Shown here in pieces: positions 786 through 62,835 of a stretch of DNA of 64,000 bases (the stretch's first letter is position 1; every line of letters starts with the position of its first letter). The DNA comes from Candidatus Micrarchaeota archaeon (GTDB taxonomy: Archaea; Micrarchaeota; Micrarchaeia; Anstonellales; Bilamarchaeaceae). The notes beneath the pieces were generated by a model. The model was not told the DNA's origin. It saw nothing but the letters and a program-made list of their open reading frames with translations, and did no database searches. Location of the stretch: NCBI GenBank assembly GCA_043821365.1, contig JBDRCX010000006.1:352001-416000 (forward strand), read 5' to 3'. Made by a program: the position numbers and the translations under genes.

Positions 786-923
786 GCAGGGATAGCAAAG
801 CCTGGTCAAATGCGCAGGACTTAAGAAACTTCGCTGATGTTTGGCAGATGTCAAAGTTCCATCAAAGGTCTTGAGTTATCCTGTCGCTTAGTGCGTTCGA
901 CGGTTCAAATCCGTCTCCCTGCA
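786..923 (+). tRNA. trnL: tRNA-Leu(TAA) with a 52-nt intron at 37/38 (826-877)
   Basis: Acceptor GCAGGGA/TCCCTGC, anticodon stem CAGGA/TCCTG, TAA at 822-824, long variable arm, T-arm GACGG-TTCAAAT-CCGTC. BHB central helix CTTA/TGAG with two 3-nt bulges. Confidence 0.95.
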
Positions 924-62404: not shown

Positions 62405-62501
62405 AACATCACCTGGAAGGCATAAATATTTGCCAAAATTGGTAATAGGAGATTTAATTGCAAAAGTAATTTAAATTAGCCCTTAAATATGGATAAAAAA
62501 T

Positions 62502-62790
62502 TGGGCCTGCTGAGAGCCGCATGATTTCAAGTCTAAACCAGAAATCATTTTGAATACCTGTGCGACTTTTTAGGAAAAAGTCGCCCAAAAACGTGCTTGC
62601 TAATTTTCGCAAAGCGAAAATGGTTTACACCGAAAATCCGAAAGGATTTTCAAACAACCAATTTTTGGGCGCTTTTTTTTCAAAAAGCGCACCTCAGGAC
62701 CTACGGCTTTCATAGGTACTCGCCAGTCTTATACTGTGCTAGAACGTGCCATATAAGACCGTCGCTCTAACCTGGCTGAGCTACAGGCCC
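62502..62790 (-). tRNA. trnI: tRNA-Ile(TAT) with three introns: 37/38 (62709-62751), 53/54 (62555-62692), 59/60 (62516-62548)
   Basis: Spliced: GGGCCTG TA GCTC AGCCAGGTTA GAGC G ACGGT CTTATAA GCCGT AGGTC CTGAG TTCAAAT CTCAG CAGGCCC A. All three junctions fold as BHB; C4-G69, U12-A23 and A73 are Ile-like. Confidence 0.9.
62561..62691. mobile_element. MITE-like element with ~30-bp terminal inverted repeats forming the tRNA-Ile 53/54 intron
   Basis: TGCGACTTTTTAGGAAAAAGTCGCCCAAAAA (62561-62591) and the inverted TTTTTGGGCGCTTTTTTTTCAAAAAGCGCA (62662-62691) around two hairpins. Mobility is inferred. Confidence 0.6.
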
Positions 62791-62835
62791 AATAGGATAT
62801 GGTGTGTTGCTCAACTTTTTTAAATGAAAGCGAAA

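Follow-up and report, generated by a model that had tools for sequence, protein, structure and literature searches.

The window analysed here is a stretch of 64,000 nucleotides from the genome of a Micrarchaeota archaeon, and near its end lies a tRNA gene with the anticodon UAU that is interrupted by three predicted introns. This gene occupies the minus strand from 62790 (G1) to 62502 (discriminator A73); read from 62790, the strand begins with GGGCCTGTAGCTCAG and finishes with CAGGCCCA. In coordinates that count from the first base of the gene (S1 = 62790), the exons lie at S1-39, S83-98, S237-242, and S276-289, and their joining would convert a precursor of 289 nt into a tRNA of 75 nt (39 + 16 + 6 + 14 nt). 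ARAGORN recognized the joined exons as a 75-nt tRNA-Ile(tat) with all four stems fully paired: an acceptor stem of 7 bp, a D stem of 4 bp, an anticodon stem of 5 bp that includes one G.U pair, and a T stem of 5 bp. The T loop is TTCAAAT and the anticodon loop CTTATAA; exon 1 supplies C32, U33, U34, A35, U36, and A37 of the latter, with the anticodon TAT at 62755-62753. The folding energy of the cloverleaf is -29.1 kcal/mol, compared to -30.2 kcal/mol for the minimum free energy (MFE) structure. The predicted junction of exons 1 and 2 is GGUCUUAUA-AGCCGU (UUAUA-AGCCG; here and below a hyphen marks the splice site), and the other predicted junctions are CCUGAG-UUCAAA and UUCAAA-UCUCAG. CCA is not encoded in the gene. 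The analysis of the joined exons thus bears out the original prediction for this locus, which had described a perfect cloverleaf with TAT at 62753-62755, A37 and A38, A73, and a C4-G69 pair.

The features of the locus, along with related sites elsewhere in the genome, are listed in Table 1. An A/T box similar to the TATA-like box, and at the same distance upstream, is found in five homologues of the gene (L002, L004, L005, L010, and L011).

Table 1. Coordinates of the tRNA-Ile(UAU) gene, its flanking signals, and related features (window positions unless a contig of the genome, G000, is given)
Feature	Coordinates	Strand	Remarks
TATA-like box (TTTAAAAAAG)	62816..62825	-	about 26-35 nt upstream of G1
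Exon 1	62752..62790	-	positions 1-37: acceptor 5' strand, D arm, anticodon stem 5' strand
Intron A	62709..62751	-	43 nt, canonical position 37/38
Exon 2	62693..62708	-	positions 38-53: A38, GCCGU (anticodon stem 3' strand), variable loop AGGUC, CUGAG (T-stem 5' strand)
Intron B	62555..62692	-	138 nt, position 53/54
Exon 3	62549..62554	-	six bases TTCAAA, T-loop positions 54-59
Intron C	62516..62548	-	33 nt, position 59/60
Exon 4	62502..62515	-	T60, CUCAG (T-stem 3' strand), CAGGCCC (acceptor 3' strand), A73
T-run (ATTTTTT)	62495..62501	-	directly after A73; likely terminator
Gene for ε2-type three-unit tRNA splicing endonuclease, 393 aa	56563..57741	-	5 kb from the tRNA gene
Copies of the intron B repeat	G000 C6:717583-717836, C6:368882-369093, C1:18244-18311, C6:14244-14289, C6:734168-734202
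Misnamed intron-bearing tRNAs	G000 C6:24258-24384, C3:58025-58150, C6:368881-369095

The gene was missed by ARAGORN, with and without its intron mode, and by the Rfam tRNA model at its gathering score, as had been predicted for standard tRNA scans. At a permissive threshold, the Rfam model gave a wrong, partial match of 95 nt at the locus (16.4 bits, E 1.4). The only tRNA of the window that Rfam detected is a tRNA-Leu(UAA) at 786-923 (plus strand) with a 52-nt intron (44.8 bits). A strict structure-based tRNA scan yielded 26 loci, of which this locus is the only one with TAT. Two permissive structure-based scans, as well as a permissive enumeration of bulge-helix-bulge (BHB) motifs, returned hundreds of chance matches in the AT-rich DNA and were dropped. 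In its intron mode, ARAGORN also misnames other tRNAs of the genome, reporting tRNA-Lys(CUU) as Ser(gga), tRNA-Lys(UUU) as 'Stop(tta)', and tRNA-Ser(GCU) as Pro(tgg), which makes automatic tRNA tables for this lineage unreliable.

Splice sites were assigned by the BHB rule, according to which two 3-nt bulges flank a 4-bp helix and the cut falls after the second base of the bulge; at the canonical 37/38 position, this rule reproduces the 31:39 pairing of the anticodon stem. At intron A the anticodon stem acts as outer helix; C32-A35 (CUUA) pairs with UAUG, apart from one U.U mismatch, to form the central helix, which is flanked by the bulges UA-U and AA-A, and the inner helix GGCAC/GUACC has 5 bp with one mismatch. 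The register of intron A is supported by conservation, in that YTA(A/G/T)GAA-A is the 3' end of most 37/38 introns in tRNA-Ile(UAU) genes across DPANN archaea, and this conserved intron end pairs with C32-A35. At intron B the central helix CCUG/CAGG is perfect and is followed by an inner helix of 4 bp, but there is no outer helix, making this a relaxed BHB. At intron C the T stem serves as outer helix; UUCA/UGCG makes up the central helix, between the bulges AA-A and GC-U, and an inner helix of 7-8 bp follows. All three introns have two 3-nt bulges and a 4-bp central helix, with 4/4 pairs at B and, the bulges being in register, 3/4 at A and C. The prediction of three BHB-bounded introns stands as to their number and their motifs; its wording was too strict for the central helices of A and C, with one mismatch each, and for B with its missing outer helix. 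Neither is the strict hBHBh' form found at C, which gains its outer helix only after removal of B. The relaxed forms at B and C, together with the central-helix mismatches at A and C, require an enzyme of broad specificity, and the need of the full intron C motif for adjacent G53 and U54 indicates that C is probably cut after B.

Other readings of the intron sequences were rejected. Placing intron C at 60/61, with a T loop of TTCAAAA, leaves 2/4 central pairs and a T loop unlike that of the homologues. A long perfect helix in the anticodon region (GTCTTATA/TATAAGAC, S32-39 with S58-65) gives no tRNA when taken as a stem. Intron A does not read as a box C/D or H/ACA RNA: it has no RUGAUGA box and CUGA is absent from this copy, and an H/ACA hairpin would not fit into the short homologous introns of 25-27 nt.

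An enzyme of suitable specificity is likely encoded in the window itself. Judged by its sequence, the ε2-type endonuclease is the likely enzyme for cutting all three introns: it contains the Pfam domains tRNA_int_endo and tRNA_int_endo_N and matches the ARMAN-2 EndA structure PDB 4FZ2 over its full length (residues 5-393 versus 4-387, E 3.5e-132). The ARMAN-2 ε2 endonuclease cuts strict and relaxed BHB motifs at both canonical and non-canonical sites (PMC3239211, PMC3488258, PMC12397907). The genome also contains a second EndA-like ORF of 163 aa (G000 C6:480404-480892; L148:1291-1782, plus strand) whose catalytic domain matches tRNA_int_endo (E 3.4e-12); such a gene, perhaps for a paralogue or partner subunit, is unexpected beside an ε2 enzyme. 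The ligase RtcB is encoded in the genome (470 bits). Its match consists of two segments separated by about 1.4 kb inside a single open frame of 910 aa (G000 C6:673872-676544, plus strand), which suggests an intein or other insertion in the ligase gene.

From these components a pathway can be proposed. The 289-nt precursor would be transcribed from the TATA-like promoter and cleaved by the ε2 endonuclease at the BHB motifs at 37/38, 53/54, and 59/60, with intron C probably removed after intron B, once the closed T stem can act as its outer helix. RtcB would then ligate the four exons, and CCA would be added later. The mature tRNA would be charged by IleRS and would read AUA through U34-A pairing, with some modification of U34 presumably keeping it off AUG. 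In the tRNA-Ile(UAU) of Mycoplasma mobile, U34 is reportedly unmodified.

We examined how AUA is otherwise served in this genome, an assembly of 1.198 Mb in 6 contigs (36% G+C, 87% complete) that belongs to the Micrarchaeota, order Anstonellales. The usual archaeal route to AUA decoding employs a tRNA-Ile(CAU) and the enzyme TiaS, the tRNA-Ile2 agmatidine synthetase. Among 613 long ORFs, ATA makes up 9182 of 21706 isoleucine codons (42%; 33.4 per 1000 codons). The TiaS_FLD domain (PF08489) has no match in this 87%-complete genome, nor in any of the 40 from its genus, which include 16 with a completeness of 90% or more; this agrees with the expectation, raised at the outset, that tiaS would be absent. 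Across the 121 genomes of the order there is one strong match, and four archaeal control genomes were positive. The lone strong match (L025, G036:C132:1-1832) comes from a contig of 1.8 kb in a bin that is 75% complete and has a UAU gene as well, and for these reasons it is probably a contaminant of the bin. Two CAU tRNAs were found in the genome by a census that is not exhaustive for intron-hidden tRNAs, one an initiator (A1-U72, anticodon stem CUGGG/CCCAG once a non-canonical intron is removed) and the other an elongator. The scans for intron-hidden tRNAs proved either too noisy or too strict, so it is likely rather than proven that the genome has no third CAU tRNA, the tRNA-Ile(CAU), which might be concealed by D-arm introns. 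No tRNA-Ile(CAU) was seen within this incomplete census.

These limits bear on the possibility that AUA is chiefly read by an undetected tRNA-Ile(CAU), its C34 modified by TiaS or an analogue, leaving the UAU tRNA a minor or redundant role. The incompleteness of the genome, the number of its tRNAs that are hidden by introns, and the strong TiaS match in G036 would all accommodate such a tRNA. Against it stand the uniform lack of TiaS_FLD in the genus, the small contig and the UAU-bearing bin from which the G036 match derives, and the report that ARMAN genomes lack both TiaS and tRNA-Ile(CAU) (PMC3239211), and we consider it very unlikely. The absence of TiaS, the heavy use of ATA, and the failure of a non-exhaustive census to find a tRNA-Ile(CAU) support the alternative strategy of AUA decoding that had been proposed from the sequence. 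We conclude that the locus is very probably a real, functional tRNA-Ile(UAU) gene whose product appears to be the sole reader of AUA, through U34-A pairing, and to replace the route of TiaS and agmatidine-modified tRNA-Ile(CAU).

Comparative data were obtained by a BLAST search of the 289 nt against 40 relatives, which found the gene throughout the genus. Ten homologues (L002-L011) were spliced in silico by alignment to the mature sequence, and each gave a 75-nt tRNA that ARAGORN identified as Ile(tat), a conservation that places the locus far beyond chance. The D loop varies, and the T stem shows a compensatory change from U50-A64 to G50-C64. The homologues also differ in the number of their introns, from two (L004, L008, L009, and L011) up to four in L005 (G024:C3), which has an extra D-loop intron of 86 nt. 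Three of them (L004, L008, and L011) lack the 53/54 intron and have a continuous C(T/G)GAG-TTCAAA in its place, and this direct sequence fixes the borders of intron B and the T loop TTCAAAT. In intron C of the homologues the 3' end TGCGGC-T is kept, the inner hairpin being replaced by other sequences. Such precise presence and absence of introns over unchanged exons indicates that these are real introns and not products of decay.

The distribution of the gene extends well beyond the genus. A pattern for the 5' half of the UAU tRNA matched in 78 of the 121 genomes of the order, representing 33 of 41 genera, compared to 0 matches for the reversed control pattern. Order genomes that gave no match to the 5' half may carry D-arm introns, as does G031, where the gene (L023, G031:C1) is interrupted by an insert that separates its D arm from the anticodon stem. 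When one genome per species was scanned with the pattern, UAU genes were found in Woesearchaeota, Micrarchaeota, Iainarchaeota, Aenigmarchaeota, Pacearchaeota, and Nanohalarchaeota, as well as in one Asgard genome and several bacteria.

Internally, intron B consists of four hairpins in series, each with an A/T stem and a GC core, and spacers of the CCAAAA type lie between them. Pieces of this intron are repeated, in either orientation, at about 10 other places in the genome and at many in sister genomes, and the family is also present in other tRNA introns of the genome. One copy occupies the same 53/54 site in tRNA-Pro(GGG), which bears a 59/60 intron as well. A dispersed repeat family of this kind could indicate a pseudogene that was inactivated by mobile hairpin repeats, with AUA being read by something else, and the imperfect BHB motifs at A and C, the lack of an outer helix at B, and a search of metagenome contigs that found no spliced or intron-less copy are compatible with such a reading. 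Inactivation is nonetheless highly improbable. Each of the four exons is intact and together they form a faultless cloverleaf, the inserts coincide precisely with BHB sites and share their positions with those of tRNA-Pro(GGG), ten homologues retain the same exons with a compensatory change, and an endonuclease of broad specificity is present; furthermore, no other reader of AUA was found by the non-exhaustive tRNA census, yet ATA is a major isoleucine codon of the genome.

We also considered what indicates that the functional tRNA-Ile(UAU) proposed here is charged with isoleucine. Similarity of the tRNA body proved uninformative as a test of isoleucine identity, since the mature sequence is identical at 62 of 75 positions to the genome's own tRNA-Ile(GAU) and at 64 of 75 to its tRNA-Lys(CUU). 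The discriminator is A73 in this tRNA and in tRNA-Ile(GAU), compared to G73 in tRNA-Lys(CUU). A73, A37, A38, and C4-G69 are all present, but none is specific for charging with isoleucine. As to codon usage, the 23 ATA sites of FttA, a gene of the window, were aligned with 28 orthologues from the order and correspond to V (34%), I (31%), L (18%), and M (2%). This profile is like that of ATT/ATC sites and unlike that of ATG sites (M 40%), and it indicates that ATA is used as isoleucine; the abundance of ATA noted at the outset is confirmed by the codon counts, and its sites fall at positions typical of Ile, Val, and Leu. Taken with the codon evidence, the sequence features A35, U36, A37, A38, and A73 point to isoleucine identity. 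Charging with another amino acid, either methionine, as where mitochondrial AUA encodes Met, or lysine, as the Lys-like body and the acceptor stems shared with tRNA-Lys(CUU) might suggest, is scarcely credible in view of the I/V/L profile of the ATA sites, the A73 shared with tRNA-Ile(GAU), and an A35 that is incompatible with a lysine anticodon.

Intron A has a further feature. A 9-bp complementarity, with 2 G.U pairs, links a segment of its loop, CGTTCTAGC (62738-62746, minus strand), with the D-arm 3' half, GTTAGAGCG (62763-62771), and this pairing appears in the MFE structure of the whole precursor. Among archaeal UAU matches, 44 of 55 have an intron at 37/38. Of 62 distinct introns from archaeal tRNA-Ile(UAU) genes, 26 have the motif YTCTR within their first 22 nt, as against 4.2 expected from shuffles, the sequences being related to one another; this enrichment toward the 5' end extends across DPANN. 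The longest intron/D-arm helix has a mean of 6.75 bp compared to 5.21 bp for shuffles, again among related sequences and with a D arm that is invariant. It is conceivable, but in our judgment unlikely, that the anticodon-adjacent intron is kept in most archaeal tRNA-Ile(UAU) genes since it is needed before splicing, with the pairing of CGYUCUAG..ACA to the D arm leading to modification of U34 or U36, as in eukaryotes, and so preventing the misreading of AUG.

The substitution of a UAU tRNA for TiaS is already known, including in this phylum. Fujishima et al. (2011, NAR 39:9695, PMC3239211) reported that ARMAN-2, -4, and -5, which represent Micrarchaeota and Parvarchaeota, have tRNA-Ile(UAU) and lack tRNA-Ile(CAU) and TiaS; the strategy thus extends beyond the few archaea, such as Nanoarchaeum and Korarchaeum, that the original prediction named. 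A later survey names only these two for archaeal UAU (PMC6000648), and is probably where the notion of rarity came from. The closest parallel is ARMAN-2 (Ca. Micrarchaeum acidiphilum), a member of the same phylum that likewise has a UAU tRNA with a 37/38 BHB intron and no TiaS (PMC3239211). The ARMAN-2 substrate, however, was described with a single 25-nt strict hBHBh' intron (PMC3239211), whereas the gene described here, from a different order (Anstonellales), has three introns (two to four in sister species), two of them in the T arm and one of these composed of 138 nt of repeat modules. In Nanoarchaeum equitans and Ca. Korarchaeum cryptofilum, as here, a UAU tRNA-Ile replaces the agmatidine route (PMC6000648); these belong to other phyla. 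The Korarchaeum gene also has an intron, a single one being reported as against the three found here, and resembles its own tRNA-Ile(GAU) (PMC6000648).

Parallels are also found further afield. In Thermoproteales, as here, a tRNA can contain up to three BHB introns, some at non-canonical sites, which are served by an endonuclease of broad specificity (Sugahara 2008; Fujishima 2010; PMC4090602), and related introns occur at the same position of different tRNAs (PMC4090602). The Thermoproteales are of another phylum and have an (αβ)2 enzyme (PMC4090602), compared to the ε2 enzyme and the intron interior of short hairpin modules seen in our genome. Eukaryotic tRNA-Ile(UAU) similarly reads AUA with UAU and has an intron beside the anticodon, and that of Cyanidioschyzon merolae also has three introns, in different arms (PMC9602550). 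Eukaryotes make Ψ34/Ψ36 in an intron-dependent manner; their splicing enzyme, like the domain of life, differs from that considered here (PMC9602550). Mycoplasma mobile is another prokaryote without the C34-modifying enzyme in which UAU reads AUA; it is a bacterium, its tRNA has no introns, and it has lost TilS rather than TiaS (PMC3575796).

Our understanding of AUA decoding is thus unchanged by this gene, which is an expected character of the lineage and not a rare private trait. What is particular to the locus is its three-intron architecture, including a T-arm intron built of hairpin modules. The gene offers a natural 289-nt substrate with three introns for studying how far the activity of the ε2 endonuclease reaches and in what order it cuts. 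The data extend the ARMAN observation to a whole order of Micrarchaeota, in which the UAU gene is found in 78 of 121 sampled genomes and a strong TiaS match in one of 121. They also complete the decoding table of a lineage whose metagenome-assembled genomes routinely report only about 20 tRNAs, which makes the 'missing' ones an artefact of annotation.
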